A stretch of 62,911 nt of DNA, counting the filler, from Octopus bimaculoides (lineage: Eukaryota): assembly GCF_001194135.2 (NCBI RefSeq). It is 4 parts of 3 records of this genome, joined end to end, with 100 filler letters (N's around TTAATTAATTAA, not from the genome) between each part and the next. Parts side by side here need not be neighbours in the genome. Positions count along the whole stretch, not along the records: positions 13,631 to 19,797 come from NC_068988.1; positions 19,898 to 48,874 come from NC_068983.1; 2 more parts are not named here. One strand, 5' to 3'. Below the pieces are notes generated by a model. The model saw nothing but the letters and a program-made list of their open reading frames with translations, was not told where the DNA came from and ran no database searches. Shown piece by piece: positions 19,156-44,502 of this stretch (its first letter is position 1; each line of letters opens with the position of its first letter). The position numbers were made by a program, and so were the translations under genes.

Positions 19156-19212
<57 letters not shown>

Positions 19213-19219
19213 TAATAGT

Positions 19220-19797
19220 AATGGTAAGACAACAAAAGAATGACAGAGACCTCAATATTATGTAAATAGAGGAATTTATCTGTAATATTTGTGACAATTA
19301 TTCAGTTGCCATAATAAGACTGAGTTTCGGATGTCGTGGCGGAAAGCCGCTCTGGCACCTCGTCAATTATCGAAGCAATCAAAAAATGCTATGAAAATGA
19401 CCGTTAAATAAGGGGAAAAAACCGAAGGGGAGGAAGTAAAAAGTAAAGGAGTAAAAATGCTCTTAGCAATCGCGTATGCACGCAGGTGAATACACATGCG
19501 CACAGGTGCATACACATGCGCGCACGCACAATCACGTACATGCGCCTATATGCATATGCTCACTCACACTCGCATGAAACACATACATGTGCACCCACAT
19601 ATACGCCTATAGATCCACATATATATGCAACCATGCACGTACACGTATACATATCCACACACGCGCGCGCGTGCGCGCACACACACATCCATATACCCAT
19701 ACGCGCACATTTATATTCAACGAGATGCCCCGACATTCGAAACTCGGAGTCTTATTATGGTAACCGAATAATTGTCACATATTTTATTACATATATA
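19220..19797 (-). mobile_element. Hammerhead-bearing Penelope-type pseudo-LTR element (family H1) with short inverted copy at its 5' end
   Basis: 19290-19340 is the inverted copy of 19730-19779; homologous, including 19220-19290, to 42869-44322; CA/TG-rich body. Confidence 0.7.
19313..19371 (-). ncRNA. Type I hammerhead ribozyme candidate (H1)
   Basis: GAUAA-UUGACGA-GGUG..CAUC-C-GAAA-CUCAG-UC/UUAUU: stems I, II and a short III, GUC cleavage triplet, C3U variant. Confidence 0.7.
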
Positions 19798-19897
19798 NNN
19801 NNNNNNNNNNNNNNNNNNNNNNNNNNNNNNNNNNNNNNNNNTTAATTAATTAANNNNNNNNNNNNNNNNNNNNNNNNNNNNNNNNNNNNNNNNNNNN
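19798..19897. other. Artificial scaffold spacer
   Basis: 44 N + TTAATTAATTAA (19842-19853) + 44 N. Confidence 0.95.
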
Positions 19898-20870
19898 CTA
19901 GAAAACTATTATAAAATATCCACCATAGGACTGCAAAAATACCTACTCCAGAAACAAGGAAAACTAATACAAATAGCCACAAAATACGAGCAAAACAAAA
20001 AACTGTTTTCAGTATCTAAGGAAGCTGACAAATACAAACAAGAAATCAATCTACCTAACAAATACGAAGAAGAAGAAGAAGAAGAAGAAGAAGAAGAAGA
20101 AGAAGAAGAAGAAGAAGAAGAAGAAGAAGAAGAAACAGCAAAAGCTATAAAACAAATGAAATCCAAACTAAAACTAGAACAGCAACGGACCATGATAAAA
20201 CGATGGCAAGAAAAGCCCCTACATGGTAAATACTGGGCTAAATAAATGCAAAAGAAATAGACAGAGAAAAGGCCCAACAATGGTTGAGAAACCCAGGACT
20301 CAAAGCAGAGACTGAAGGATTTTTAATTACTGCACAAGACAAGAGCCTCCCCAACAGAAATTACCAAAAACACACAATGAAAAGAAACATAACAAGTAAC
20401 TGTAGAATATGTGGAGATCGACAAGAAACAATAAATCATATTATCTCTGGCTGCCCAGTCCTGGCTAAGAAGGAATATATTCACAGACATGACAGAGCTG
20501 GGACCTATATACACTGGAAGCTATGCCAACACTATGGAATAACAACAGAAAAAAGATGGTATAAACACACGCCAGAAAAGGTCACAGAAAACGAGAAAGC
20601 AACCATACTCTGGGATATGCCAATACACACATATAGAGAAATTAAGGCAAATAGACCAGATATAGTTGTNNNNNNNNNNAAACACCAGGACTTACAAATA
20701 TATATAACATACAGAAAATTGCACTACTGGGTACTGCACACATTCTACGCAAAACACTTTCAATACAGTAAACATAAGAGCACCACAGCAATCCACAGCA
20801 CATACCCAAGGCGCACAGAGCTGCGCTCGGTAGTGAAGTGAAAGCACGTTATAAAAATAAAACTACTGAA
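19898..20870 (+). mobile_element. R4/Dong family A, post-RT region, CCHC finger, RLE start and 3' UTR
   Basis: KPLHGKY, GLKAETEGF..AQD, CRICGDRQETINHIISGC (C-x2-C-x8-H-x4-C), LWDMPIH..NRPDIV; followed by (AAT)n/(GAT)n. Confidence 0.9.
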
Positions 20871-20872
20871 AA

Positions 20873-20916
<44 letters not shown>

Positions 20917-20920
20917 AATA

Positions 20921-20976
<56 letters not shown>

Positions 20977-20977
<1 letters not shown>

Positions 20978-21490
20978 CAGTGTCAGGCATTGGCTCTCAT
21001 GGCTTCTGATCTTAGCTGATTGGAAGTGTTATCATATACGATGTTTTGTCTTGGTATAAAAGATGGGCTATAGCAAATATTCTGCTCAATACCACAGACA
21101 TTTGCTTGTCATTTGCTTGACCCTAACCAGACGATATGTGTATCTCTGATCACGAGCAGAAGTAGTGGGAGAGCATCATAGCCACGTGAGGAATTCTTTG
21201 GGGTTTCGATAGTTCACCTTTGGAAACATGGGTGTTTCGTTCAACATCCTTAAACAACCCTTATTAAAGCACCTTTTGAGCGGGATGGACTACTGGACTT
21301 GAAGAAAATTCTAACTGAGTCCCACCTGCAATGTCATGCGCTGTTTATCTTGATACGAGATGACTATGTCACGCACATTTGGCTCTGATGCCTGGTGTAC
21401 CCTTATCAGACAGTAGTCATGATGGGTATACTGGGCTTCGTGTCTTTTACCCCAGTGCCATTTTGATGGCATGCCCTGCTCTCTCACTCA
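20977..21490. mobile_element. Non-coding interspersed element bounded by trinucleotide repeats
   Basis: Homologous to 58125-58460 (same strand) and 61265-61655 (opposite strand); ends CTCTCTCACTCAATAA. Confidence 0.75.
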
Positions 21491-23269
21491 ATAAGAATAA
21501 TAGTAAGTCTCTGGCTGAGACCCGCTCGGAAGCTAAAATAAAATGCAAATCAATCAGAAAATAACTGGTATTTCACATGTATTGAGAAGAACATTATCAC
21601 TGTGGGAACGCTAATCTTCCATGTAAATAATTTTGTTTCTGTACACAACTTATGTATTTCTGGTAGCAAATTGATTATTTTTATTTTTACCACCCACTGG
21701 CTAACGCATATTAGTATGAGGTCTAGTTACTCACTCTTTAGAGTGTTACCGAATCTTCCCGTAGAAGAAATCTCATCTCTGCCGAAACTTCTCCCATCAG
21801 ATAGGTTTTGGTCTACCTGAATGTTTCAATGCACTTTTCATTTGCTCTACGTTTCTAGTTTTCAGTCATATATTTCTGTGTAGAACCTTTTCTGTGCATC
21901 CTCCTGGATCTATTGTGGTTTTTTAGAGGACATTGTTCTTCCATTCTTGGTTAAAGAACTTTTAGCATTTTTCGAATTTTGTCGAAATAACGAATGCAAG
22001 AATAAATTATTCTCGCATTCGAACTGCGTTAGTGAAGTTGTTACCAGCAAGGCTTGCTAGACGCGGTATTAGCGTTATGCATGCTGTTGATGCTGGTGGT
22101 AGCAGCGGTGGTGGCAGTGGTAGTGATTGTGTCAACAGATGTGTAATATAAATACCTACAATGCTCAATTCATGTTGTAGAAATAATAAACAAATGCTTT
22201 TGGTAATAGACTTTTAAAATCACTATTGACTTGAAGTTAAACAACAATAACAATAATAAAAACAAGAACAACAACAAAACATATATCTCTCCATGTGAGG
22301 GCTTAGAAAAACTACGCATGAGAATCGAGTCACGTGTCATCACCACAGCAAATTATAAGAGAATAAGAACCACATATTACAATGATTTATGAAAAGTTTC
22401 ATCATCAAGAGGAAATAGTGGACAGTTTACAACGATTAGTCTCATAATTGAACACTGATTATCTTCCACAGAACGATAGCTTGTCACTCCCTGGTAAGCG
22501 TTACAGCTGTCTAATGGCCAACATCTAAATAACAGCAGCCAATTACAGAACACTCGACTGGAACAAGCCGTTATATTTCGAACAATATATTTTGCTGAAG
22601 AACTTCTTAAACAGGATATCTCATAATTCCGTTGCAACATAATATGGTCAGTAATCCATAATATAGAATAAGCAACATGGTTTTGAGTTCTTGCCAACCA
22701 ACTTTCTTTAACATCATACAATCTATTTCCTTTTTGTTCTGCGTCTTAAGCCTATTTAAATGTAATATCAGAATTAGCATTTTTACTGTGTTGGTTTTCA
22801 AATTTTGATAGTTATCGCTAACAAAATATGCAATCTGATAGCGACCCCTCACTTGAACTGCTTCGCATGCAATTGGATGCCATCAATAAATCATCAATAA
22901 ATACCACAATTTCTAAGTCATCTTCTATAAATGTGACTCACCATTCTTATCAATATTTTCTTCATCAATTTTTTTTATTGAGCATTGGTTATAATCCACT
23001 TTCACATATAGAAACGTTCATATCTTTGTCATGACAGGTTTTCGTTTATTATAGGTCGTCTGCTCCATTGTAATATATAATTATTACATAACAACTGAAA
23101 CTCACTTTTGTTGTTGCATTTTCGAATCTTCGATTCATATCAAATCTGCAATAGTTAAACCTATAAAACTATAAAATGTGGACGTTATCACCAAATTTTC
23201 ATTCCAGTTTTCGCTTGTTTCCTAATATTAGACAAAACAGAGATATCTTTTACTTCTTACTGCCTTATA

Positions 23270-23400
23270 TATAATCCACTCACAAGGCTTTGGTCGGTCG
23301 GAGATTATAGCAAACGATACTTGCACTAGCTGCCACGTAGTGGGAATGACCCCACAACCATGTGGTTGGGAAGCAAGCTTCTTACCACGAAACTACGCCG
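23270..23400 (-). mobile_element. SINE family 4, 5' fragment
   Basis: ATCCACTCACAAGGCTTTGGTCGG...CATGTGGTTGGGAAGCAAGCTTCTTACCAC. Confidence 0.7.
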
Positions 23401-24294
23401 GTGCCTTGTGTGTAAGCTCAAAAAGTAAGTTACTGAACTTGCATGGATTTATAATGATTATTTTCTGTCGCTATGAAATCTTTATCCAGACTACAAAGGG
23501 CGTGGGTTTGGGTTGTTTTTAAGAACTGAAGTAATTTTGAAATATCGTTTACACAACTCGAAGAAAACATTTTGACTAGAGTTGCAACGAAAATGTCTAT
23601 GACAGGCATGGATAACACCCATGTCATATTAAATTCTACATATAACTTAACATAACATCTCCAGGAAGAAAAATTCTTATTTTTATTTGTAAAATTGAAA
23701 TGTTTGTTGAATCCTATTTAGTATAAACCTAAAAGATCTAGGTAACTGATATAGATACATTTCCTTTAAGTATTGTAGAGATGTAAGACCTGCTTGACAC
23801 TTCTCCAAATAACCGACGAGAATACTACTATAATTATCGAAAGGAGGATTGATTAGTTATTTCGATTAATTGGTTACTTGTTTCGGTTGATAACGAAATT
23901 CAATTACTATCGATCTTGCTTACAAGTCACCTATTGATTTTGAACGAAGTATTTTATAGTATTAATTTCTTTCGAAATTTTTATTTTATTAATTTAGTTT
24001 CTAAAACTCTGATGAAAATCAAGGAATGTAAGATTTTTCATCTTGCCAAAATAAAAATCTTCTTTTCTTTTGCTTTTTGGCAAAAAATGAGAGAAAGTGG
24101 ATAAAAATATCTTCAATGCCTTTTCTTTTATGTTCAAGAGAAAGAAAATAGCCAAAATTGATTTATCACACCAGAGAGCTAGTTTAGGGAATATAATAGA
24201 TTTCTTTTAAAGGAAACATTCACATCTCATACACAAGGAAATACTAAGGTTACTGGATTACGATGTATATCTTACAATAAGAAATTACTGGCGC

Positions 24295-24692
24295 AAAAAC
24301 ATTTCTTTTACTTGTTAGTCATTTGACTGAGGCTTTGCTGGAGTACCGCCTTTTAGTCGAAGAAATCGACTTCAGGACTTATTATTTGTAAGCCTGGTAC
24401 TTATTCTATTGAGCTCATACGCCGAACCGCTAGATTACGAGGGCGTACACACACCAACATCGGTTGTCAAGGAATAATGGTAGTGGAACAAACACAAACA
24501 CAAAAACACACACATACATGCATACATACACGGCGGGCTTCTTTCAGTTTCTGCCTACTAAATCCACTCACAAGGCTGTGGTCGGCCTGAGGCTATAGTG
24601 GAAGACACCAGCCCAAGCTGCAACGCTGTGAGACTGAACCCAGAACCATTTGGTTGGGAAGCAAGCTTCTCACCACACAGCCACTCCTGCGC
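24295..24692 (-). mobile_element. SINE family 4, near-complete
   Basis: Reverse strand begins GGCGCAGGAGTGGCTGTGTGGTGAG (A-box-like), with B-box-like GGTTCAGTCTC and an internal CA microsatellite. Confidence 0.85.
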
Positions 24693-25162
24693 CTGTTGAA
24701 TAATTATCCATCTTTTCTTTCATAATTCAGCTTGATTCGAAATATCTATCTTGTTTAATACCCCTTCTCTATCTCTGTTTATGTGTGTACCTGTGTGTGT
24801 CTTCAAATTCTATATTTTTTCAGCTGAAATAGCATTGAATATTCTGGTTATATACAGCTTCATGCAATCGTATTTAATGAGAGAATGAATCGACGAGAGA
24901 ATGTTTGCCATTCCATTGTCATAACATTATTAAAACATTATAGTAACCAAGAGTGCATTTTGCACCAAAAGCCAATATGAGATTTTCTCTCATGGCAGCT
25001 ATTGCAGTATAGCTTGTTCTGACACAACATCTACGTTTGAGTAGGGATAAATATTACATCTCACCATTACGAACTATTATGACATTGATTGTCTTTCCTA
25101 TACCAGTAAATCTTATAAAAGTCGAGCCGATGAATTAACTTTCATATAAAACTAAATTAGTG

Positions 25163-25530
25163 GAGGCGCAATGGCCCAGTGGTTAGGGCAGCGGACTCGC
25201 GGTTTCGATTCCCAGGCTGGGCGTTGTGAGTGTTTATTGAGCAAAAACACCTAAAAGCTCTACGAGGCTCCGGCAGGGGATGGTGGCGAACCCTGATGTA
25301 CTCTTTCACCGCAACTCTCTTACTTCCTGTTTCTGTTGTGCCTGTAAGTCAAAGGGTCAGCCTTGTCACACTGTGTCACGCTGAATATCCCCGAGAACAA
25401 CGTTAAGGGTACACGTGTCTGTGGAGTGCTCAGCCACTTGCCCGTTAACTTCACGAGCAGGTTGTGCCGTTGATCAGATCAACTGGAACCCTCGACGTCG
25501 TAAGCGACGGAGTGCCAACAACAACAAAAC
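25163..25530 (+). mobile_element. SINE family 2 (tRNA-derived, (AAC)n tail)
   Basis: GGCGCAATGGCCCAGTGGTTAGGGCAGCGGACTC..TTCGATTCCC head; reverse copy at 47050-47400. Confidence 0.85.
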
Positions 25531-26297
25531 TAAATTAGCATGTCTATGCTAGGTGGATGAAAAATACGATCAATATCAATAGGATTTGCTCTCAATTCAT
25601 AAATAATTTTCAACATTTCTTGAACAAATTTTAACACGGAAGTATATTTATCTACGCGCATTCTATCTGATTCAATTGCACAAATTAAAGAAAATGGAAA
25701 ATCATCTATACTTTAATTGCATTGTTAAATCTAATTATTCTCATTACATTTTAATTATTGCTACTTTTCAACTATTATTCATTAAAAATATATTTTCATG
25801 TGTATCTATACTTTCTGAAAATTCGTCGTTATATGTAAAAACTCATATCTTTTAATTGTTCAAACAACATCAATTTCTTTTGTACTCAATAACGAATTAT
25901 TTTGACTCTATATTTATAGTCTGAACTTAAAGATTTTTTGTGTTATAATTTTCACTAAATAAGAGGAAATTCGCTTGCATACTTAAATTGTTATGGCATA
26001 AATTCATAGTCTGCTACATTGTTTTCAAAGATCGTTAACAAATCAGCAAAGTACACTCAAAGTAAGCGATTGATAAAACTTCGGTGTCACATAAATAACA
26101 CTCTCACACAGTCAAACACAGACAGTCAAACACAGACAGTCAAACCGAAATAAAAATCTTTTCTTCCCTTGCTTTTTGGTAAAATTCAGAGAAAACGTAT
26201 AAACGTATGTATAAACGTATTTTCAGAAAAAAGAAAATAACCAAAATCAATTATTTATCACCCCCACATATACATACACACACATATATATACATAG

Positions 26298-26384
<87 letters not shown>

Positions 26385-27500
26385 CGCGTCCGCAAATAAG
26401 CTGCATTAAGGACCCTCTTCCATGCACCACAAGTCACATGGCTTTTCTTCCTGAATTCACTATTGTTCTATAGTCTTCAGTGGTCATTAAGATTTGTATA
26501 TCTATATACGTTCACTAATCCACGCGTCCTTTTTACTTAACACTCCCCAGTACTGGATCAAGAGACAACAGTCAGTGTCGTTACCAAACTCCTTTACTGT
26601 AGTAGGTCATCGCAACGTTTATTGTGGTACGAGTTTCTGGACTGACCTGTAACGTACTAGGTTCGCTTGTTTTTTCCCGACTTGCCGCGTCCCCACTTCG
26701 AACATTCCTCATATGACTATATCATTTTTTACCCGGTTGTAGGAGAACACAATTTGTGTCTTTCCAAATGCAGAATTTTTTCTCGCTGCTCGATAAAGGA
26801 CAAGGGTAGAGATACACTTTTCTTTGTCACGCATCTATGCTAAACATATGTATTTTCCCGCCAAATACACTATATCTAGACGTATCTGTCTGAAGTGGCA
26901 CCAATAGAAGAAGGAAGATTGGAAGTGCCTTCCATGTTTCTGAACTGGAACCATTTATTAATGTTGCTCTTTCATTTTCTTTCACAAATGTGTGTGAGTG
27001 TGTGTGTTGTTTTTGTTGTTGATTTGTTTGCTTGTTTGTTATGCAAATTTGATTTTACAAATATCAAATTGCGACTGCCTTGCGAGTGTAACATTTTATT
27101 TCATTATCATTTTTCTTGTTTATGTTTTTTTCTAAAAATTCTGTAAAAATTTTGTAAAAATTCTGTATTTAAAAAAAAATTCTGTATTTAAAAAAAAATT
27201 CATTTTCATGCATTCGAAGATTAAATGACAGTTTCATTTTAATAATGTGTGTTTAGTGCTACATCTTTTGTTTCTTTTAACTCTTACTGCAGCTTTTGTG
27301 GAGAAAGCCATGTTGAAAATATTGTAAACACAATAAAATTTCAGTAAAATGTTAAAGCTGTGTTCAATAAAAGATCTCCCGTTTAACTCACATATAGAGG
27401 TAGACGTCCTGACGATCTAAATGTTTGCAAAATAATCCAATTTCCTTGACAGGTTCATTCACGCCAAAACAAGACAAATGATAATAATAATAATAATAAC

Positions 27501-27572
<72 letters not shown>

Positions 27573-27586
27573 CATAATAATAATAT

Positions 27587-28166
27587 GAAATAACAACAGA
27601 AAAAAGATGGTATAAACACACGCCAGAAAAGGTCACAGAAAACGAGAAAGCAACCATACTCTGGGATATGCCAATACACACAGATAGAGAAATTAAGGCA
27701 AATAGACCAGATATAGTTGTCAAAGATCATGAAGAAAAAAAATGCTTTCTAATTGATGTATCAATACCAGCAGATGACNNNNNNNNNNNNNNNNNNNNNN
27801 NNNNNNNNNNNNNNNNNNNNNNNNNNNNNNNNNNNNNNNNNNNNNNNNNNNNNNNNNNNNNNNNNNNNNNNNNNNNNNNNNNNNNNNNNNNNNNNNNNNN
27901 NNNNNNNNNNNNNNNNNNNNNNNNNNNNNNNNNNNNNNNNNNNNNNNNNNNNNNNATTCAGACAAATACATAACAAAAACACCAGGACTTACAAATATAT
28001 ATAACACAGAAAATTGCACTACTGGGTACTGCACACATTCTACGCAAAACACTTTCAATACAGTAAACATAAGAGCACCACAGCAAACCACAGCACATAC
28101 CCAAGGCGCACAGAGCTGCGCTCGGTAGTGAAGTGAAAGCACGTTATAAAAATAAAACTACTGAAC
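27587..28166 (+). mobile_element. R4/Dong family A 3' end (gapped)
   Basis: NRPDIVVKDHEEKKCFLIDVSIPADD; terminal ACTACTGAAC; (AAT)n on both sides. Confidence 0.88.
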
Positions 28167-28195
28167 AATAATAATAATAATAATAATATTAATAA

Positions 28196-30185
28196 TAGGC
28201 CGACAATTACAGGCCGATATCCTGTTTGCCACTTATGTGGAAGTTATTGACTAGAATTCTCGCAGAGTCAATATACGAACATCTGGAAAAAATGGAGTCC
28301 TGCCACATGAGCAGAAGGGTTGCAAGCGTAAATGCAGTGGTACCAAGAATCAACTCCTGATAATCAAAACTGTACTTAAAGACTATTGTAAAGCGTACAA
28401 TATTATCCCATATTCTTGGATTATGGAATGCATGAACCTATTTAGTATTGCATCGAAAGTTGAGCGATTGCTTGGAAAAAATATGCCGAAGTAGAGGACG
28501 GAACTGACAGCATATGGAAGAAGTTTAGGGACAGTAGAAATTAGGAGGGGCATCTTACAAGTGGACTGCCTGTCCCCACTGATCTTTGTACTGTACTTGA
28601 TACCACTAACACTGATTCTGAGGAAAGCAAAAGCTTGGTATGTATTGTATTCAAAAGCCGCTAACAAAAAGTCAACCATTTGTTATTCATTGATGACCTC
28701 AAACTTTATGGTAAGATGAATCCCAAGTCAGTTCCCTTGTTAATACGGTGTATACCTTCAGTGCTGATATCAGAATGGAGTTCGGACTGAGAAAGTGTTA
28801 GTATTGAAGAGAGGCAAAATAAAATGTATAGACGGGCAAACGATACCGCCAGGGAAGGTTATGAAGCAGATAGAAGAGACGGGCTATAAGTATTTGGGCG
28901 TTCTGGAAATGGATAAATTGATGGAGAAAGAAATGACAGACAAATTTACGGTGGAGTACTTGCGCAGACTGAGACTGATCCTTAAGTCGAAATTAAGATT
29001 GAAGCTATCAGCACCTGGGTGGTTTCACTCCTTAGATATGGAGCGAAGGTAATCGCATGGACAGTAGACGAACTAAACAGCTTAGACTGAAAGACAAGAA
29101 AGTTACTGACTAGATATGGGTCACTCCACCCAAAAAGTGACACAGACAAACTGTATGTACCAAGAAAAATAAGGAGAAGAGTTTTATTTGATGCGAACAC
29201 AGCATTAGAGCAGAAGAAAACAACATAGCATGGTATGTAAAAAATGCCACAGAACCGTTATTATTAGAAGTAAGAAGGTCATGCTTGTATAGGATGAAAG
29301 ATTACAAAGATAAAGCACTATACAAAAAATTAATAACGAATGAAACTGAAAATAGGTGGGTAAAGAAAATAATGCATGGTCAACTTCATAGGGATGTTGA
29401 AGATAAGACAGACAGAGAAGAAAGATGGCTGTGGATGACTAAAAGTGATTAAAAACCGGAAACGGACGCTCTAATCTGTGTTGCTCAAGAGCAAGTACTA
29501 AGAACAAACTACATAAAATATAGAATAGAGAATACAGCAGGAAGCGATAAGTGCAGAATCTGTGGACAAAACTGTGAAACCGTATGGCATATTACCAGTC
29601 AATGGACGCCACTAGCCCAGAGGGAATTTAAGAGACACCACGACAATATAGTTAGGCTTGTCAATTGGACACTTTGCAAACAAGTATGGACTTGACAGAG
29701 CAAAAAATTGGTACGACCACAAACCTGAAGGCATCGTCGAAAATAGAAATGCAAAGATCCTATGGGATTTTATGATTCAGTGCGACCATGACGTAGAGAA
29801 TAGGAAGCCAGACATAGTGTTAATTGAGAAAGAAAACAAACTGCTGGATCATAGATATAGCATGCCCAGCTGATAAGGAAGAAAGAAAAGTCGATAGATA
29901 TGACAGGCTAGCTTGGGTAGTTAAGCAGTTGTGGTCGATGAAAAAGGTGGTAGTAGTACCAATAATTGTCGGAGCTCTGGGAACAGTGTGCAAAAATATC
30001 GAGAAGTACGTGGAACAAATAGGGGCTGCAATAAGGGTGGAGAACTTGCAGAAAACAGCACTGCTTGGAACCGATCGAATACTCCGGAAGGTGCTCGAAA
30101 AATAAGAGGTGTTACCTTAGTTCACATGTAGTGAACAGCTGACACCGTAGTACATGTCAAGCGTTAGAAGCTGTGCAAAAGCAAT
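28196..30185 (+). mobile_element. R4/Dong-like family B, about 2-kb 5'-truncated copy (RT, CCHC, RLE)
   Basis: [77 protein letters not shown]; AAT/AAC repeats on both sides. Confidence 0.9.
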
Positions 30186-30215
30186 AATAATGACAACAAC
30201 AACAAAACAACAACA

Positions 30216-30255
<40 letters not shown>

Positions 30256-30271
30256 AATAATAATAATAACG

Positions 30272-30316
<45 letters not shown>

Positions 30317-30317
<1 letters not shown>

Positions 30318-31075: not shown

Positions 31076-31091
31076 TTATATAATTATAATA

Positions 31092-31230
31092 ATAGTCTTT
31101 TCTAATATAGGCGCAGGGCCTGGAATTTTTGTGGAGGACGCCAGTTGATCACATCGACCCCAGTATTAAACTGGTTCGTATTTTACCGTTCCCGCAAGAG
31201 TGAAAGGCTCAGAAGACTTCGGTGGCGTAG
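31092..31230 (-). mobile_element. SINE family 1 3' part
   Basis: Reverse complement of CCAGGCCCTG.GCCTAT..TAGAAAAGACTATT as at about 60010-60040. Confidence 0.7.
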
Positions 31231-31239
31231 AAGAAAATA

Positions 31240-32450: not shown

Positions 32451-32689
32451 ATTGAACCGAACGGGTGCGAAATAGGAGACAGAGAACGAAAGATAATCTA
32501 ATTATCAGAAATTTCAAGAGAAGACAGACAAACTTGAGCATGGCACGTACGATATGATGCCACACTCTTGTATAACAAGAACAATGGAAATGAATGGAGT
32601 AGCAGAAACATGAGAAGCCTTATATGAAACAGTGTGAAATGTTGGTGAACTGAATTTACAGTAGGGAATCAGGTATTAAGAGAGACGAA

Positions 32690-34340
32690 AATCAAGAGAG
32701 GAACCTTCCAAGGGGACAGTGTATCCCCACTGACCTTTGTGCTGGGGATGATCTCCTTGAGTGAAATACAGTAAAAGACAAATTTGGGGCATGATCTGGG
32801 AAGCGGTAACGGAAAACTGAACACCTGCTCTTCAGGGATAACTTGAAGTTGTGCACAAAAAGCGAGGCAGAACTGGACAACATAGCCCAGTCTGTACGGG
32901 TTTTCTCGAATGATAACAAGATGGGGTTTGAATTCTCAAAATGTGCTACGATGGTGATGAGAAGGGGAAAGCTTGTCAGGACAGAAGGCATATATACGCC
33001 AAGTGATGAAAAGATGAAGGCAATTGAACATGAATCCGAATATAAATACCTGGGAATGCTTGAGGCAGATGGAATTAAACACAATGATATGAAAGAAAAG
33101 ACAAAGAAATAGGACCTGCAGCGAGTGAGAAAAATATTAAATTCAAAGCTGAATGCCAGAAACATAATTTTGGTAATAAACTCGTGCGCAGTCGCAGTAG
33201 TTTCGGTATGGTGCTAGAATTCTGAAGTGGACAGAGGAAGAGCTAAAGGATTTGGACAGGAAAACAAGAAAGCTCTTAACGATGCATGGGGCCCATCGTC
33301 CACGAGCAGACACTGATCGCCTATACATGAAAAGAACAAATGAAGGAAGGGGACTGATATGTGTGGAAGACTGCATACATATCGAACTCGGTAGTTTATT
33401 GAGATACCTATCCCAAAGTAAGGAAATCTTGCTAGTGTCAGTTAGGAATTAGGGAGTATTGAAAACAGACGAAAAATGAAAAACAAAGCAGGAAATACAA
33501 AAAGGACATGAAGAAGCATTATGTAACAAGGGACTACACAATCAATTCTATGTAGCCACAACTGAAGTTGCTGGAAAACAGGTGGGACTGACTGAAGAAA
33601 GGAGCATTGAAAAAATGATTGAGAGCACCATACTGGCATCGCAAGACCAATCTTTGGTCACAAATTGGAGGGTCAATATTAGGAAATAGTAAGTGTTTTC
33701 ACTGTGCCTCATCTGTAATAGAGTGGACGAAACCATTGCTCATATTGTAAACGAATGCCTTAGACTTGCCCCAAACCAGTACAAGTTGTGACGACACGAT
33801 GAGGTTGCGAAAGCGCTACATTGGAAACTCTATGAAAAGTAGGATCTAGAGAGAGGCAAAACGTGGTATGAGCAAAAACCACAAGGAGTGATGAAGTAGG
33901 AGACCCGCAAGATCCTATGGGATTTCCTAATTCAAACAGGTCAGGTGCTCCAGCATAACAAACCGGTGGTGGTGGACAAGGTGCACCGCATGTGCTGTAT
34001 AGTTGAATGTTGCGTGCCCCTTTGACCCACGAATAATTAAATGGAAGGCGATAAATAAATATAAGTTAGAAATAGCCCGTGAAGGCGAAGACAGTGCCAA
34101 TTATTGTTGGGTCCTTCAGGACAGTATCAGAAGGCATCAAGATGAATATAAAGGAAATCGGAATAGAATATCCAGCAGAACTGTTACATAAGGTTGCCTC
34201 CTTGGCACGGCTAGAATAACCAGGAAAGTATTAGACAGTTGAAAAGAACAGATAGCATGGTACTGTAAGCTGAAGGCAGCAAGCCCACTACGCATGCAAA
34301 ACTCCAGGAGTTCCAACAAAACCTGAGTTTAAAAGTATAA
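32690..34340 (+). mobile_element. R4/Dong-like family E (RT domain 4 through RLE and 3' UTR)
   Basis: RGTFQGDSVSPL, DNLKLCTK, MGFEFSKCA, YKYLGMLE, MDRKTRKLLTMHGAHRPRADTDRLY; ends before (GAT)n(AAT)n. Confidence 0.85.
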
Positions 34341-35889
34341 TGCTGAAGATGATGATGATGTGATGATGATGATAATAATAACTTTGTACTTCACCCTTGT
34401 ATTATAAGATATAATTAATATACCTCATGATATCACCGAATTGAAACACAAATGACTATTCTTAAGCACACAATTGATAATCACCCATTATCACTATATC
34501 ACACATACACCGTATTCATCCTATTTTCATACGTCCGCTACAAGAATTATACACTCTATAGATACTGATCTTTCCCTGTGGAGAAGGAAGCGAAAATCCT
34601 ATAAATTCTCAGCTGGTAGTTTCCAGCAAGCTAAAGGAGAATGCGTTTTCAAGTTACGTATAGACTAGTGATTTGAATTGATGCATAAACTTTATAATCA
34701 AACTGTATGATTTGCTGTTTAATAATATCATTGTGGCTATTGCGCTGTATAAACCTTGGAGTTTCATTGATTATAGAGTTGCTTTGCGTAGCTTTAGTTT
34801 TCATATTGTTTTGATATGAAGGTTATAACGACCTCAGTGTCTCAAACTGAATGTTATTTTGATCCTTGAATCATACTGACTATCATATTAATTGATATCT
34901 CTTGAAAAAGTGTATATTTTTGTATGGCTACGTGTACATTAGCGAGATTGTGTATTGAGAGAAAATATGCTCAGAATCAGCTAAAAGGATGTTCTGTTGT
35001 TTAAAGTAAAGAAGAGGAGGACTGATACTAGTAGGGGTGGAACTGAGTGTAAAAACCACTGAATATTCTATAGTTTGTACCGAAAATGATACATGTTCCT
35101 AGGTCTTAGTAGCTAAGGTACTTGGTGACAAATAATAGTGTTTAATGATCCTTGTGAATTAGTGATTTAAGGAAAGATCATGTATACTAAGAAGGTTCTT
35201 AGAAGTGTGGATTCCCAGAAGCGTTGATACCTGTGACAAATAGCTCCGACCTTATGCTCAAAGTAAGGTCATAAAGTAAACATGCGTGCACAAAAACGAC
35301 AAGGACTTAGAGTCATAATAATGTACTCACAAATGCATACACATACAACCATAGGCACACACATATATACACGTACACATACACACACATATAATATATT
35401 CTTGTCATTGATTGAACAGAACTTGAAGTCCTCTCACGTAAATTCCTGCCGGATGGTGTTTTGGCTTTAAGAGCTGTCACATCTGAATATATGCGTAGGC
35501 ATACTGGAACTAAGGCAACACAGTTCCTGAAAGAAGGTTAGGGTCACATATATATCTGACAAGGAGTGTGGTGAATAACTGAATCGATAGATCTCTAAAC
35601 AAAATATAGTGAAATGCAAGGAAATGAAAATCACAATTCATAACTGCTTTGTAACAACTTTTCTTTGCTCTATTCACCATCATCCCACATCATTTCAAGA
35701 GAGACAAATATTTCACACAAATTAAAGTTTCTACACAGAATACCAAATGTACTAACATCTGGGTTTTCATGTCCTTGTAAATGATTTACAGGATATCCAC
35801 AAGTTATGCCAATATGTCGAATACATTTCGGAATAATATTAGGTGACTCGTATTTTTTAGATTTTAGGTGTTTCAGCCTTTGGATGGCG

Positions 35890-36070
35890 GCCATATTGAG
35901 GCATTGCTTTAAAATATTTAGTCAAACAAATAGACCCAAGTATTCATTTTCAAGCGCGGTAATTATTCTATCTGTCACTTTGTTTCCGGACCGCTAGATA
36001 ACGGGAATGTAGACAAACCAAACCCGGTTGTCGATCGGTGGTGGTAGGCAAACACAAACACAAAGACACA
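35890..36070 (-). mobile_element. SINE family 4 3' half, diverged
   Basis: ATTCTATCTGTCAC..CCGGACCGCTAGATAACGGG..CGGTTGTCGA, homologous to 24400-24480. Confidence 0.6.
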
Positions 36071-36204
36071 CACACGTCATTGGGCGTAGGGAATAGAGCA
36101 GGTAAATATGCGCACATACAAACTCACGCGCACACAGATACATACATGCACAGATAATCGTTTAGGAATCCATACGTCAGGAAAAATAAGCACTTGTATA
36201 TTTG

Positions 36205-36240
<36 letters not shown>

Positions 36241-36752
36241 CATCAGAGACCTCACAAGTGACCTGACATATCTGACGTACTTGATATACCTGACATACCT
36301 ACCTACCGACATACATACGTACGTACATACATACATGCATACGTACGTACGTACATACATACATACATATATACATACATACATACATAGGCATGTATGT
36401 GTGTGCGTGTGTGAGGGGGGAAAGAAAGTGAGAGATAGAGAAAAAAAGAGAGAGAAAGTGATTGAGAGAGACAGAGAGATAGAGAGAAAAAGAGGGAGGC
36501 GGTTTGTATTTGCTTCCAGAAAATTGTAATTTAAAAGTCAGAATTTTGAAAATAATATTAAGAATTTAATTAGAATTAATAAATTTTCCATGTTCATTTT
36601 GCATTGGCTCAAAGTAACACATTTTGAAAAAAGTATTGCGAATAATTACATTTCTAGAGGAATATTCTTGTCATCGTAAGAATCACTAACCGTTGCAGAA
36701 GCAGTGACATCATCAACTTCATGAACATAATTCTAATTATCCTCACTAGGGG

Positions 36753-36847
36753 GATTCTTCTTCTTCTTCTTCTTCTTCTTCTTCTTCTTCTTCTTCTTCT
36801 TCTTCTTCTTCTTCTTCTTCTTCTTCTTCTTCTTCTTCTTCTTCTTC
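36753..36847. repeat. (CTT)n microsatellite
   Basis: Read directly. Confidence 0.95.
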
Positions 36848-37469
36848 TATATGTTGTTCACTTTCCATATTTTGTAATTCAATTTCCGGAGAGAAAGCTT
36901 AATTTCTGCTGCCTTAATTAAAACGAAGTGAGTCTCATGAAATGCGATAAAAATAACTTCCAACTCCTTACAATTATTTCATAGTTCTTTTTTTATTTTT
37001 TATTTACCCATTTTCAGTTTTAATAACAGTATTTCTATTTCTGAAATTACTTTCTAGAAGTTGAGTCTATTTTAAATTAAATTAATTACATTAACAAACT
37101 ATTAGATTATTGCTATAATAATTAAAATATTTTAGATAATGAGGCATCAAATATATACTCGCATGAATTACAAACGTGAGTAGATTTGGCTATTTTAACT
37201 ACACAACCTGAAGCGCCTACTTAAATGCTACTTCTGTTCCAATTATTCGATCATAAGAGTTCATGTAGTATGTTGGACTATTTTCTTTAAACGATAACCT
37301 TTTAGTCTAGTTCCATGACAATATATGTTATTAGCAATATGATAGTTACGAAAATCATTTTAAACAGAGGGAAAGGTTATTAAATGCAGAAATTGTGCCA
37401 AATTGACGGCCCTACTTAAAGTATTTTTGTACTTAATACAAAGAAGCAAATTTATATCATGTAGACTAT

Positions 37470-37560
37470 AATGGCCCCGAAAGGATGAAAAGTAAAGTCA
37501 ACCTCCACCGACTTACTCCCACCCCCAAAATTGCTGGGCATGTGCCACAATTTAAAACCA
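37470..37560 (-). mobile_element. SINE family 1 3' fragment
   Basis: CCCCGAAAGGATGAAAAGTAAAGTCAACCTC, reverse of the SINE-1 core. Confidence 0.65.
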
Positions 37561-37583
37561 ATATAATATAATATAATATAATA

Positions 37584-39650
37584 TCTATTATATATAAGAC
37601 GGAAGATGTGTGTGTGTATGTGACCGACCATTAGGTTGATCCCACGTAAAATCAATATTTTTCATCCGATTTCACGCTTGGCAAATACATCACTTATGTT
37701 CAATAAATGGTTCAACACTCTTTAGACCTTTTACTTATGGAGTAATATAGAGTTATGGGGGTTTCTAAAGAAAGGGTCAGAAAAACCTCTATTTCTGATG
37801 TTCGGTGACTATTATTGACAAGGGAAATAACTCTATGCGAAGTAACATTCAGAAATAGATTGTCTTCCTTACATTTGTATATACCTGCTACACATTTTTG
37901 GTTGACAGTTGGTGGGTCGTACACCATAGCAAGATGCTCTGCAAAACATTTCATGCACACATCAACGTAGAATTCCGTAATTCTGTCAAATCCATACGTT
38001 ACGTATGCAAGTACATTACCAAAAAATCGGACAAAGCCGTTTTTCAAATAAAATCTACACGATCAACAGGTTTTACAAATGATGAAGTGATTCTTTTTGA
38101 AACTGGACGCTTCATATCCACCAATGAAGCCATATGGAGAACCTTAGGATTCCCAATTCACGAATGTTACCCTCTTGTGATTCATCTCAGCGTTCATTTG
38201 GAAAATAGGCAGCGAATTTACTTCACAGAAGACAACCTCATTCAAGAAGCAGCTGTCCCGCCAAAGACCACTCTCACGGCCTTCTTTCACCTATGCAAAG
38301 TCGACCCCCTGCAAAGTCTATTTTGTACGTTGAAGTGCCGCATTATTATACATGGAATCAATCATCTTCCCAGTGGCAACGATGAAAACAAGGCCGAACT
38401 ACGCAGTTGGATCCAGCAATCGGATGCGTCTACACAGTTCACCACTTGAACTCCGAATGATTCCATCTGCAGCTCTTACTTCATGTCATTAAGGGACCAA
38501 CTTCCTTCGATAACCTTCGTACAGTGGACGGCTACCTATACGGCACTTTCAAAGATGCCTGCTCGAACGAGGACGTTTGGATATCAATATGATAATGCAC
38601 TCGAAGAGGCCTCTCTGTGTCGTTCTCTGCACAAGCTCCGACACCTCTTTGTAATAATGCTGGTTTTCAGCAACCTGACAAGCGCACATTCACTTTGGAA
38701 GAAATACAAAGACTCAATGTGCCATATTTTGCTGCAGACTCGCCAAATCACAGGTAGCGTTGACACTCCCACTACCCTTGCCATTTACAGCAGAGGACTT
38801 CTTCTCTTGGAAGACTTGGTTATGGCAACTGGAGGTCGACGATTGGACGCTTATCCTCTCAACATTCCAGACAGAAATGAAGACGCCTGTCCCAATCGCC
38901 TCGTTCTCAGAGAAACATCCTACAACATCTACAAACTCGAACAGTTCATTGCTGACAAAGAGCCCCTTCTGAATTCTGATCAAGCTGACATATACAATTT
39001 TGTCATCGGAAACATCTACACACACTTGCAGAATCTTCTTCTTAGACGCACATGGTAGAACTGGAAAAACACTCCTCCTAAATATTCTTGCGAAATTGCG
39101 GTATAATGGTGACCTTGTTATAGCTGTTGCGTCCTCAAGAATAGTCTCGGATCTTCTCGATGGTGGATGAACAGCACACTCTACCTTCAAATTGCCTTTC
39201 AATGAAGCACATCAAGAAAACCCAACGTGCCACATAATGCATGCATCGGATGAAGCGACAATTTTGAAAAAGTGCAAACTCATTGTTTGGGATGAAACAA
39301 CTATGTCCCATAAATGTTCCCTACAAGCACATGATACCACAATGAGAGACCATAGATCGAGCAACATCATTGGATGCGCGACTCTACTTCTTGCAGGAGA
39401 TTTTCGACAAATTCTGCCTATTGTACCCAAATGAACACCCGCCTATTATACCCAAATGAACTTAATGCCTGCCTTAAAAAAAACCCCTCCTTTGGTTGCA
39501 TGTCCAATCGAAACAACTCACCATCAACATGAGATCACTCATACAGACTGGTCAGCCTACAATCTCTTTTCGGCAATGAACAAATTACGTCCGATGCCAA
39601 CGGATATATTGACACTAACACCATTAGCCACACTGTCTTCATATCCATAT
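37584..39650 (+). mobile_element. Helitron, internally deleted Rep-helicase pseudogene
   Basis: 5' TC-start (TCTATTATATATAAGAC); Rep C-terminal HINVEF..SVKSIRYVCKY, GRFISTNEAIWR, VIHLSVHLEN; PIF1-type TGKT, AHSTFKLP, LIVWDE..M, LAGDFRQILP. Confidence 0.9.
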
Positions 39651-40351
39651 ATANNNNNNNNNNNNNNNNNNNNNNNNNNNNNNNNNNNNNNNNNNNNNNN
39701 NNNNNNNNNNNNNNNNNNNNNNNNNNNNNNNNNNNNNNNNNNNNNNNNNNNNNNNNNNNNNNNNNNNNNNNNNNNNNNNNNNNNNNNNNNNNNNNNNNNN
39801 NNNNNNNNNNNNNNNNNNNNNNNNNNNNNNNNNNNNNNNNNNNNNNNNNNNNNNNNNNNNNNNNNNNNNNNNNNNNNNNNNNNNNNNNNNNNNNNNNNNN
39901 NNNNNNNNNNNNNNNNNNNNNNNNNNNNNNNNNNNNNNNNNNNNNNNNNNNNNNNNNNNNATAACATTGATTATAGAACAAACATCAAATTCGAGTCAAC
40001 AACTTTATATAGTACCACGTTTCCATACATTTGATCATATATGAATATTACCATGGCCTTCAACATATAAAAAGAATGCATATATAAAAAAAACACTGAA
40101 AGTAAAAAATATATATGCAAATAAAAATACAAATATATAGAACGTCCTAACAAGAAGATATATATACAATCGACTAAAAATAAGCAATCCAAATGAATTA
40201 CTAAAGCTTGTCAGGCGACTAAAAACCTAAACAATGATATCAATCAACCAAAAATTTTTTTTACTCTTCTCAGTTAAAAATACGTTAAAAAAGTTCATTT
40301 CATAAAAAACCATGGTAGGTTGAAATTCAGGAGCGTAAGAGAATTCCACAA

Positions 40352-40442
40352 AATCAAGTCAAAACACATCTATGACCATAAATCGTAATCGGACCGCGGC
40401 AGAGAACTCCCGAAATGGCCATAGATGTGTTTTGACTTGATT
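40352..40442. repeat. 27-bp inverted repeat with 37-nt spacer
   Basis: AATCAAGTCAAAACACATCTATGACCA / TGGCCATAGATGTGTTTTGACTTGATT, one mismatch. Confidence 0.9.
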
Positions 40443-41899
40443 CAATGTAAAGATAGCATGTGCATATAAGGTAAGGAAGATAGTCCGATCATACGGTTTA
40501 TTATTGAATAGTCCGTTATCTATTTTAGTCCTCACACACACACAGAGACATACACGCAACACACACTCATACAAACTCATATGTAGACGATTCAGAAAGA
40601 AAACATGATATAACCTTTAAAGTCACTAATTAACTTGCTCATGAATGCTGAAAGTCAGTAAATAACGATTTTTAAAAAAATGAAGGGAAGTACATTTTGT
40701 TGCAACTGTAATTAGGTAATTATTCTCCAACTCCGAATTGAAATTACAATTCAGACACAGAACAACTTAGAATTTTATGATGACTATTAGAAAATATTAC
40801 AGAATGCAAATGATTAAATATATTATGAAACAGAGATGTTGCATCATTATAATTAGATTTTAAGCTATAAATTTCCATTGAGATACACGTATACAAACAT
40901 ATTCATACACACACAGATACGCACACACTCAAACACACGTATATATATATATATATATATATATNNNNNNNNNNNNNNNNNNNNNNNNNNNNNNNNNNNN
41001 NNNNNNNNNNNNNNNNNNNNNNNNNNNNNNNNNNNNNNNNNNNNNNNNNNNNNNNNNNNNNNNNNNNNNNNNNNNNNNNNNNNNNNNNNNNNNNNNNNNN
41101 NNNNNNNNNNNNNNNNNNNNNNNNNNNNNNNNNNNNNNNNNNNNNNNNNNNNNNNNNNNNNNNNNNNNNNNNNNNNNNNNNNNNNNNNNNNNNNNNNNNN
41201 NNNNNNNNNNNNNNNNNNNNNNNNNNNNNNNNNNNNNNNNNNNNNNNNNNNNNNNNNNNNNNNNNNNNNNNNNNNNNNNNNNNNNNNNNNNNNNNNNNNN
41301 NNNNNNNNNNNNNNNNNNNNNNNNNNNNNNNNNNNNNNNNNNNNNNNNNNNNNNNNNNNNNNNNNNNNNNNNNNNNNNNNNNNNNNNNNNNNNNNNNNNN
41401 NNNNNNNNNNNNNNNNNNNNNNNNNNNNNNNNNNNNNNNNNNNNNNNNNNNNNNNNNNNNNNNNNNNNNNNNNNNNNNNNNNNNNNNNNNNNNNNNTATA
41501 TATATATATATATATGTACAGCTATACAAACATACATTTATATTATATATAATATATACATACACACACATATATCGTTGAAAGCTTTCACGCACACACA
41601 TTACAATATACATACGTAATACATTGAAGATGTTAACCACATCATAACTTGCTGCTTGAAAATGTTGTCACAGTATTACTCTCCTATAAGACACGATGTC
41701 GCGACTAGAACACCATATATCAAGTCATTAAGAATGAAATGTCCGATTTTCTTATGCACCAAGTTTGACAGTCATTAACTCTAATGTTTTATTCTGACAA
41801 TTCTTTTACAACATTGAAGAGAGTGACAGCATGACTTTCCGAAATGCAATTAACCATGTCTGATTATATTGTGAGTTTTCTCTTGTAAATCGATTTCTG

Positions 41900-42325
41900 T
41901 GAACCCATGGATTGATAAACAATTCGTGTTGTTTATGAATATGGGTTCCATCGTGGAACCAATGCATCCCAGACCGCCCGAAACATTAATGAGGTGTTTG
42001 GTGAAGGTGTGACGAATGAGCGTCCTGTACGTTGATGATTTGAGAAGTTCCAGTTTGGTGATTTTACTCTTAAAAAATCAGCCCCGTGGTAGACCTGAGA
42101 CCAAGGTGGATAATGATGGGCTGGAAAATGTAGTGGAAACGGTTACAACTCAAACTACGCATGATTTAGAAGTAAGGTTTGATGTTTCGATTCCAACTGT
42201 ATTAGACCATCTGAAACAAATCGGCAAGGTAAAGTAGCTGGACAAGTGGGTACCACACGAACTGAACGAGTATCAAATGACATGTCGTCTGGAAACTTGC
42301 TGTTCTTTGCTGTCACTGCATAAAA
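41900..42325 (+). mobile_element. Mariner transposase N-terminal half
   Basis: ARNINEVFGEG, RGRPETKVD, TVLDHLKQIGKVK.LDKWVPHEL. Confidence 0.88.
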
Positions 42326-42836
42326 GTTTCTGTGTTGTTTTCAGACAGTTCAGCTTTGTTTATTAAAAGTTGCTCGGCACCGCCCTACACTCCCCTCTTT
42401 CCACTAGCCTGTTCATCAGTCAAAATGTTCGACTCACAATGGTCCTGGAAGAATTGGTTGAGGCAACTTGTGTGCAATTACTAGATAATATCTAGGCAAA
42501 GAATGGGCCTGTAGTTTCCTGCCATTTGGGTGATTTCATTTTTGGCAACAAGATTTGTCCTTGCTATAGCAAGCCATTGTGGTATATCAGTCTGACATTC
42601 CATAGTCCTTTTGAACATACATATGAACTGGTTTCTTCTACCAATATCCAACTATTAGGTCCCTTCCAGGTGCCTTCCCATTGTATGTATGTATGTATGT
42701 ATGTATGTATGTATGTATGTATGTATGTGTGTATGTATGTATGTATGTATTATGTATGTATGCATACATGTATGTATNNNNNNNNNNGTATGTATGCATG
42801 TATATATGTGTGTGTATATCTGTCTGTCTGATTGTC

Positions 42837-42872
<36 letters not shown>

Positions 42873-42891
42873 ACAATTATTCGGTAGCCAT

Positions 42892-42951
42892 GATAAAACT
42901 CCGAGTTTTTGATGTCGGGGGGAAACTCACGCCAGCATCTCTTCAGTTATC
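42892..42951 (-). ncRNA. Type I hammerhead (H1), GAAA mutated to AAAA
   Basis: GAUAA-CUGAAGA-GAUG..CAUC-AAAAA-CUCGGAG-UU/UUAUC. Confidence 0.6.
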
Positions 42952-43618
42952 GGGCTATCGAAAAAAATGCTATGAAAATGACCGTTAAACAAAGGGAAAT
43001 TACTGTCTGATTAACCGTTATTAAGACAAAAGAGCTATTAGAATGGCCGCTAAGTAAGGGGAGGGAGTAAAGGTAACGGAGTGAAAATGTTCATAGTAAT
43101 TGCGTAAGCGCGCATGTCCATACATACACATGCGCGCCCTCGCACCCGCGTACATGCGCCTATATGTATATACTCATCCATCCTCACTTGAAACACACAC
43201 AAGCTCATCCACACATTCGCCAAAAAATATATACATACCCGCATACACACTCGCACACACACACGCGCACAAAAACGGTTCATACACACGTCTATATACG
43301 CACATGCACAAGAAAAAACAGGACTAAAGGGAAGATACAGAAAAATGTGTAAAAAAGTGTAAAAAATAAGCAGCAAGAGTAAAACATATCCGCACACACG
43401 CACACAACCACACGCGCGCACAATTTCATTTTTGGCAACAAGATTTGTCCTTGCTAAAGCAAGCCATTCTGATATATCAGTCTGACATTCCATTGTCATA
43501 CATATAAACTAAATATGTACTAACTGCACACAAGTTGCCTCAACCAATTCCACTAGGACCATTGTGAGTCGAACATTTTTACTGATGAACAGGCTGGTGG
43601 AAAGAGGGGAGTGTGGGA

Positions 43619-43653
<35 letters not shown>

Positions 43654-43836
43654 GGTATGTGCGTATGTAGACGTGTGTGTGTGTGTGCGTGCATGCGAGT
43701 ATGTGCGTATATAGACGTGTTTTACTCTTATTACTTATTTTTTACATTTTTTTATACATTTTTCTGTATTTTGCCTTTAGCCCTGATTTTTCTTATGCAT
43801 GTGCGTATATAGACGTGTGTATGAACCTTTTTTGTG

Positions 43837-43878
<42 letters not shown>

Positions 43879-44163
43879 CGTGTATGCGGGTGTGTATATA
43901 TTTTTTGGCGAATGTGTGGGTGAGCATGTATGTGTTTCAAGTGAGGGCGGATCAGTATATACATAAAGGCGCATGTTCGTGGGTGTGTGGGCGCGCATGT
44001 GTATGTATGGACATGCGCGCTTACGCAATTACTATGAACATTTTTACTCCCTCCCCTTACTTAGCGGTCATTCTAATAGCTCTTTTGTTTTAATAACGGT
44101 CAATCACACAGTAATTTCCCTTTGTTTTAACGGTCATTTCCATAGCATTCTTTTCGATGGCCC

Positions 44164-44222
44164 AATAACTGAAGAGATGGTGGTGAGTTTCCGCCCCGAC
44201 ATCCGAAATTTGGAATTTTATC
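44164..44222 (+). ncRNA. Type I hammerhead (H1), intact core
   Basis: AAUAA-CUGAAGA-GAUG..CAUC-C-GAAA-UUUGGAA-UU/UUAUC. Confidence 0.72.
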
Positions 44223-44502
44223 ATGGCTACCGAATAATTGTCACATATTATATTTACAAATAAATTCCTCTATTTACATCATATCGATGTCTCTTTCATT
44301 CTTTTGTTGTCTTGCCATTTGTATTNNNNNNNNNNNNNNNNNNNNNNNNNNNNNNNNNNNNNNNNNNNNNNNNNNNNNNNNNNNNNNNNNNNNNNNNNNN
44401 NNNNNNNNNNNNNNNNNNNNNNNNNNNNNNNNNNNNNNNNNNNNNNNNNNNNNNNNNNNNNNNNNNNNNNNNNNNNNNNNNNNNNNNNNNNNNNNNNNNN
44501 NN

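Follow-up and report, generated by a model that had tools for sequence, protein, structure and literature searches.

Four copies of a repeat carrying a type I hammerhead ribozyme motif, here called the H1 family, were analyzed in a 62,911-nt stretch of Octopus bimaculoides DNA (assembly GCF_001194135.2, four parts of three records joined end to end; hereafter, the window). With a probability of about 0.75, these copies are 3' ends of a high-copy hammerhead repeat, truncated on their 5' side and arranged in two head-to-head pairs that were inserted into (TA)n by the reverse transcriptase (RT) and GIY-YIG endonuclease of a Penelope-like element (PLE), likely of the Hydra clade. Membership in the PLEs rests on the insertion signature and the ribozyme, and H1 appears from its sequence to work like a PLE 3' end. 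An earlier note on this DNA had described a type I hammerhead in a repeat dependent on Penelope-like machinery and either 5'-truncated or devoid of an open reading frame (ORF), and that description is supported.

All four reported motifs are present, at 19313-19371 (minus strand), about 19717-19756 (plus, partial), 42892-42951 (minus), and 44164-44222 (plus), and the inverted partner claimed for both loci is seen at two of two. At the first locus, copy 1 (19214-19716, minus) is a 5'-truncated arm with a TG-rich non-coding body and a long 3' end, or tail, that meets a (TA)n target at 19190-19213, and copy 2 (19717-19790, plus) is a short inverted arm that begins within the ribozyme core and has a short 3' end followed by (TA)n and an assembly gap. 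At the second locus, copy 3 (42870-43422, minus) is a 5'-truncated arm without the tail, ending at (TA)n in 42839-42869, and copy 4 (43618-44325, plus) is the longest arm, tailed, with at least 700 nt of non-coding sequence and an assembly gap at its end, then (TA)n. Copy 4 is 83-85% identical to copy 3 over 553-601 alignment columns and 69% identical to copy 1 over 438 columns (19214-19607); up to 19709, copy 1 retains a weaker similarity to 43648-43720. Copy 2 is 84% identical to copies 1, 3, and 4 over about 70 nt. A pattern of 28 nt, taken from the common 3' flank, has exactly four matches in the window and none in 100 shuffles, and BLAST within the window reveals no fifth copy.

Both loci are 5'-to-5' inverted pairs with their 3' ends in (TA)n. 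The family has two 3' ends, which bound an optional tail of about 65 nt (44263-44325 on the plus strand and 19214-19276 on the minus strand), and the tail is found on one arm per locus: copies 1 and 4 have it, copies 2 and 3 do not. The predicted ribozyme cut lies about 45 and 108 nt before these two ends. Direct pseudo-long terminal repeats (pLTRs) from a partial tandem were found at neither locus. In the block common to all copies, three informative sites group copies 1 and 2 versus copies 3 and 4, and none favors the other two groupings. Assembly duplication as the source of the inverted arms is ruled out, since the arms differ by 6-9%. The spacer of the second locus contains two pieces of its left flank. 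Piece A (43423-43497, plus) is a direct copy of 42533-42607 (94.7% over 75 nt), whose source we take, from its translated motifs, to be an old R4/Dong-like RT fragment; piece B (43514-43617, minus) is an inverted copy of 42384-42487 (91.3% over 104 nt). At non-CpG sites, the spacer-to-flank divergence (4/75 and 9/102) equals the arm-to-arm divergence (19/320 and 10/107), and thus arms and spacer likely arose in one event.

Comparable arrangements are known from PLEs; here and below, comparisons draw on the available portions of the cited papers. Insertions that are paired with an inverted, truncated copy and bear a tail at one of their ends are described in PMC8557442 (Figure 2 legend and text) and, for Pen2a of A. 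vaga, in PMC3846280. AT-rich DNA is nicked and extended on both strands by a Poseidon protein, and two internal starts bound the tail (PMC11167929); given these two RT start sites, two H1 3' ends in (TA)n are as expected. We suggest that a PLE protein nicked both strands of (TA)n and started a pair of cDNAs, whose start sites would lie about 108 nt (the tail site) and about 45 nt (the short site) past the ribozyme cut. After ending early, the two cDNAs would have been linked 5'-to-5' through repair that, at the second locus, also copied about 180 nt of the neighboring flank. The source RNA is predicted to be cut after GU(U/C), only as a dimer formed via the palindromic stem III, possibly with assistance from the element's protein; the window copies would now be dead and decaying. 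PLE hammerheads cleave weakly, as dimers (PMC4209133; PMC6765202), and the Poseidon hammerhead cuts only with protein and is dispensable for insertion in vitro (PMC11167929).

A second PLE family at 47760-48875 provides an internal control. It is a head-to-head pair with 84% identical inverted arms, a tail on the plus arm, and (TA)n on both sides. Its minimal-type hammerheads, with an extra A after A9, lie at about 48134 (minus) and 48698 (plus), and a GIY-YIG C-terminus at 48251-48412 (plus), 81% identical to an O. bimaculoides protein, precedes the ribozyme by about 300 nt. Relatives of this family, which is presumably Neptune-like, have a Cys-rich linker ahead of the endonuclease. The head-to-head tailed layout in (TA)n therefore derives from PLEs in this genome.

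Copy 4 and the majority form of the family have a complete hammerhead core (CUGANGA, GAAA, and UH), which is broken in copies 1, 2, and 3. All four copies are damaged: copy 1 by C3U and a 2-nt stem III deletion, copy 2 by loss of the 5' half, copy 3 by G12A, and copy 4 by a weak stem III and a stem I mismatch. In copy 4, the motif with its extended stem I spans 44153-44234 (plus), with the core at 44169-44175 and 44205-44208 and the predicted cut after 44217. Copy 1 has a GUC site with a predicted cut between 19318 and 19317, and copy 3 has a GUU site and the best-preserved stems; in the truncated copy 2, stem II is internally deleted and the palindromic stem III is intact. The layout given in the earlier note holds in part. 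The motifs are there, and GUC is kept in two copies, as claimed. Yet the copy at 42892 reads AAAA for GAAA and has A as its extra base, and the copy at 19313 carries the two lesions just mentioned. The proposed stem I, GAUAA/UUAUC, is right for one copy only; the copy at 44164 has an A.C mismatch at the fifth pair. The proposed 3-bp stem III is in the family a stem of 4 bp with a 1-nt loop, and stems I and II are far longer than was claimed.

The five pairs of stem I are followed by a small internal loop, beyond which a distal helix keeps nine of ten pairs in all three full copies, one position being A-U, G-U, or U-A. Stem II has four basal pairs and a mismatched extension, with about 30 nt between the core boxes. 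An extra base precedes GAAA (C, C, and A in the full copies, with T and A also among the loose ends of the contigs described below); it can be placed as a bulge after G10.1-C11.1 or as an insertion before G12, at the 3' foot of stem II. Stem III is predicted to form a self-duplex of -9.9 to -11.1 kcal/mol in copies 2 and 3 and no monomer fold, and is weakened to a predicted -4.0 kcal/mol in copy 4; as modeled, it is a dimer-dependent design. Among the three full window copies, two of 33 core positions are changed and some flanks are equally invariant; since inserted copies decay neutrally, contrasting core and neighbors among copies is not an apt test of conservation. Four sites separate the two loci (N7, N17, a G-C/G-U pair, and the switched distal pair). 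All are structure-compatible, a thin but real sign of selection on the source lineages.

A relaxed type I descriptor matches the window five times, in the three full H1 copies and two motifs from other families, and matched once in 30 simulated windows. A strict descriptor gave three matches in 400 simulated windows and none in 20,000 simulated element bodies. The four copies, as one family, amount to one observation, though not to a chance resemblance.

Outside the window, the stretch 43880-44325 is present in 20 of 24 sequencing runs (three organisms). Four of the 24 runs were aligned to it at 80% likeness, and 3,115, 7,311, 1,082, and 89 of their contigs fit. As thousands of contigs fit, H1 is an abundant and dispersed repeat; contig depth is not taken as copy number. 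The runs with 1,082 and 89 contigs, which we guess to be RNA, are not evidence of expression, since the contigs show neither transcription, strand, nor ends. The majority letters repair copy 4 at 44164 (G, 93-98.5% of depth), 44209 (C, 89-99.5%), 44211 (C, 95-96%), and 44215 (G, 95-99.5%), yielding an intact type I hammerhead with a 5-bp stem I and its distal extension, a long stem II, and the palindromic stem III ACUC-(G/A)-GAGU. The majority C at 44209 and G at 44215 also turn the AUU..AAU stem III, earlier read as covariation, into decay of one copy: it is confined to the copy at 44164, makes up 1-11% of depth, and is not evidence of selection.

The contig variation considered here covers 40 of 129 substitutions and 12 of 22 indels, along with 15 of the 40 joints and 24 of the 707 loose ends. 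Among those substitutions and indels, the most variable sites are unpaired: 44163 in the internal loop, 44212 in loop III (G>A, at depth shares of 7, 52, 7, and 19% across the four runs), and indels in loop II. As with neutral decay, the most frequent changes in the two DNA-like runs are C>T and G>A. T>C at 44217 is missing among the substitutions listed, from which we infer that GUU is probably the commoner cut site in the family. Loose ends enter (TA)n behind 44262 (45 contigs in run X13 and seven in X15) and behind 44324 (82 and 18 contigs, respectively), and the joints listed include five strand switches at varied places and no go-back joint. At another loose end, behind 44309, five X13 contigs pass from the tail into sequence other than (TA)n after a pyrimidine-rich stretch ending in AG; with an agreement of only 0.65, this may represent internal sequence of a tandem source that carries on past the tail, and possibly a splice acceptor. 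Scans with H1 family patterns gave no matches in metagenome, viral, and genome contig collections.

H1 is not of the minimal type, which lacks stem III and has an additional base following A9; its motif is similar to those of the Hydra clade, for which the comparison set comprised the 25 motifs in File S2 and the 27 families in File S1 of PMC8557442. All 25 motifs have a palindromic stem III of 3-4 bp, five read ACTC-N-GAGT, ten have U17, and 26 of the 27 families target (TA)n. Shared with H1 are the type I motif near the 3' end, the 4-bp palindromic stem III with a 1-nt loop, and the (TA)n target (examples are Hydra-2_Amil, Penelope-16_HM, and Hydra-1_Obim). ACTC-G-GAGT is identical in two families, and an inverted 5'-truncated partner is recorded for Penelope-13_HM. 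H1 differs in its longer stem II, its longer TG-rich non-coding region, and the lack of a linked ORF. Hydra-1_Obim was rejected as a parent, its stem II, stem III, and 3' end being different. On the sequence evidence, H1 is likely a member of the Hydra clade; a canonical hammerhead with a palindromic stem III, together with (TA)n, is suggestive and does not define the clade by itself.

The pLTR hammerheads of Penelope/Poseidon and Neptune elements (PMC4209133) are likewise of type I and dimer-dependent with a long stem II, and truncated PLEs leave them widely distributed, either singly or close together on opposite strands; in H1, unlike in these, nothing extra separates A9 from G10.1, and stem III is a real one. 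In most of the 56 PLE motifs in Figure S3 of PMC4209133, A9 is followed by an extra base and stem III is nearly absent. One of the 56, in a row that is not assignable, reads AGAAA, so the 3'-side extra base has a precedent. Other natural hammerhead insertions, and not an extra base before GAAA, are named in the available part of PMC3088659. In the Anolis Poseidon element PAc (PMC11167929), as in H1, two 3' ends past the ribozyme define an optional tail and the target is AT-rich, and priming on both strands explains inverted pairs; in contrast to H1, the PAc ORF begins in stem II, and the PAc tail is 30-40 nt versus about 65 nt. The octopus PLEs Naiad_Obim, Naiad_Ovul, and Naiad_Omin (PMC8557442) share the (TA)n target and inverted insertions but lack a canonical hammerhead, and the 3' end of Naiad_Obim is unlike that of H1. 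Naiad_Obim and Naiad_Ovul were dismissed as parents: only a 14-nt word near their 5' end matches the motif, which is taken as chance. Four H1-specific words have no match in the PMC8557442 supplement.

Several observations weigh against H1 being the 3' end of a Hydra-clade PLE with a working ribozyme. No RT or GIY-YIG sequence accompanies any of the H1 copies, all of them truncated, within up to 540 nt upstream, and the clade is accordingly assigned from ribozyme type and target only. The non-coding sequence upstream of the motif, at least 540 nt, is longer than in six Hydra consensus sequences. The extra base before GAAA occurs in none of the 25 listed Hydra-clade motifs and may impair catalysis. 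Single H1 copies fold no better than shuffles (z from +1.1 to -1.1), and the hammerhead is not their favored structure. T>C at 44154, found in 49% of depth in X13 and 62% in X15 with no partner change among the substitutions listed, speaks against the outer part of the distal stem I in that lineage. The spacer of the second locus could derive from a different R4-like copy and not from the local flank, and the target-site duplication is unreadable, as assembly gaps adjoin copies 2 and 4. The Rfam check proposed in the earlier note, low in sensitivity, gives no hammerhead, either across the window at E<=1 or within 44060-44325 at E<=10, and its only window hits are microsatellite-driven miRNA matches; this silence carries little weight, since Rfam also misses the GIY-YIG-linked motifs at 48134 and 48698.

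The claim that the H1 body lacks an ORF holds, in that no Pfam-matching ORF was found in it. Hydra-type RT and endonuclease motifs (RWK, DKT, and the CxCX5C linker) were not found in a six-frame motif scan. In copies 3 and 4, stretches of 123-140 aa that lack stops were set aside as TG-rich read-through with no Pfam match, and an ORF starting from an AUG in stem II, as in PAc, was rejected, with a stop after about 20 codons. The chances that the H1 source has its own ORF further upstream or is ORF-less are about even. The specific case of a non-autonomous, ORF-less source of under about 1 kb, which borrows a PLE protein in trans and out-multiplies its partner, is tentative, at somewhat less than even odds. 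It is consistent with the non-coding 700 nt or more of copy 4, with the 3,115 and 7,311 contigs of the two DNA-like runs, and with the different, short 3' end of the described octopus Hydra family; trans-acting pLTRs and non-autonomous PLE derivatives have been described (PMC8557442; PMC3846280; bioRxiv 10.64898/2026.07.22.740005). However, there is no fixed 5' end, as the arms stop at differing places, T-rich and microsatellite-rich 3' untranslated regions could conceal an upstream ORF, and the neighboring second family retains its GIY-YIG end about 300 nt before the motif. Doubtful, in turn, is the fuller picture of H1 as an ORF-less, very high-copy Hydra-clade satellite of octopuses with an active hammerhead that tolerates the extra base, whose insertions would record double-strand priming at two RNA starts and templated flank capture.

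Small or circular RNAs, which the earlier note had considered possible products, are not supported for these loci: there is no same-strand tandem in the window, the motifs lie on opposite strands, all copies are damaged, and the joints listed hold no go-back. Read-through RNA of the second locus has 477 predicted pairs between the arms, and with paired ribozymes on opposite strands it would fold as a long duplex, which makes circles unlikely. Improbable, with no same-strand tandem in the window and no go-back among the joints listed, is that H1 is a non-LTR retrozyme whose tandem monomers elsewhere are cut by paired hammerheads and circularized, the window copies being stray monomers. Animal non-LTR retrozymes (PMC7229834; bioRxiv 10.64898/2026.07.22.740005) are PLE-related non-coding repeats that carry a type I hammerhead; according to the latter source, their origin lies in PLE pLTRs and they leave monomers behind. 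H1 agrees with them in its type I motif, paired stem III, and extended stem I, and a joint of unspecified type runs from 44245 to 44157 in one contig. Retrozymes are, however, defined by same-strand tandem units and circular RNA; the H1 3' ends enter (TA)n and not a next unit, and the H1 body exceeds the 150-450-nt monomers of PMC7229834.

Less probable still is transport of H1 by other machinery, for instance the abundant Dong/R4-like LINEs, as a SINE-like passenger with a vestigial hammerhead. R4/Dong-like LINE fragments occur often in the window, including next to both loci, and a poly(A) loose end occurs behind 44311 in two contigs of one RNA-like run. The LINE fragments nevertheless end in (AAT)n and H1 in (TA)n, no 3' tail is common to the two, and two fixed ends, a one-armed tail, and head-to-head pairs are features of PLEs. 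Chance resemblance to a hammerhead is very improbable: against the missing Rfam match, the lack of a folding signal in single copies, and the reduction of four copies to one observation stand the nulls of 0/20,000 and 3/400, the repair of exactly the paired and core positions by the majority letters, the location of the motif near the 3' end as in PLEs, and a stem III identical to described Hydra motifs.

The roughly 150,000 hammerhead variants reportedly collected by Lunse et al. 2017 may include the H1 motif. No description of the H1 family was found in the literature searched, and Repbase, Dfam, or the library of PMC13282606 may already contain it. For cephalopod hammerheads, the available sources give only Rfam counts in the giant squid (PMC6962438); the O. 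vulgaris repeat paper gives Penelope families, with no ribozymes in its main text (PMC13282606). Hammerheads at truncated PLE ends are common in animals, and H1 is thus ordinary in kind. It is apparently an abundant octopus family with a Hydra-type ribozyme, and its extra base before GAAA is a rare core-adjacent variant. The second locus, whose twin arms and copied flank are equally old, gives a clear fossil view of how a PLE insertion might be brought to completion, a step still unvalidated in PMC11167929. If the satellite picture were true, thousands of natural footprints of the finishing of PLE insertions would be at hand. Inverted H1 pairs would also provide long double-stranded RNA if read through.

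The window as a whole is repeat-rich animal DNA, with 3,089 N in assembly gaps, microsatellites, and fragments of LINEs, DNA transposons, and a Helitron; Pfam matches were found in 13 of 150 ORFs scanned, the longest of 251 passing a complexity filter. A third hammerhead-like motif at 6870-6975 (plus), with its core at 6916, C3U, and an extra A after A9, lies within a long hairpin (-30.5 kcal/mol) as a single copy between SINE-like pieces. A fragment at 13652-13900 (minus) is 89% identical to the N-terminus of a protein, P0001, which we take to start with a 2A-like SVEPNPGP followed by a cysteine-protease-like stretch and a PLE-like N-terminal motif, with no Pfam match. The fragment was rejected as a partner of H1, with P0001 as its one relative, no locus found, and no link to H1; a PLE with a 2A peptide and a protease domain may deserve attention. 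In the Octopus protein P0002, a PLE thumb/GIY-YIG region is fused to a MAP7-domain host protein, which is either a gene-model artifact or an exonized PLE fragment. The segments 105-760, 20242-20870, 27579-28197, and 48975-49780 are 3' fragments of one RLE-type LINE with zf-RVT matches, presumably Dong/R4-like, that end in (AAT)n, and one of them retains an open 224-aa C-terminus. Finally, a Helitron-like fragment with a PIF1 helicase match is located at 37859-39431 (plus).

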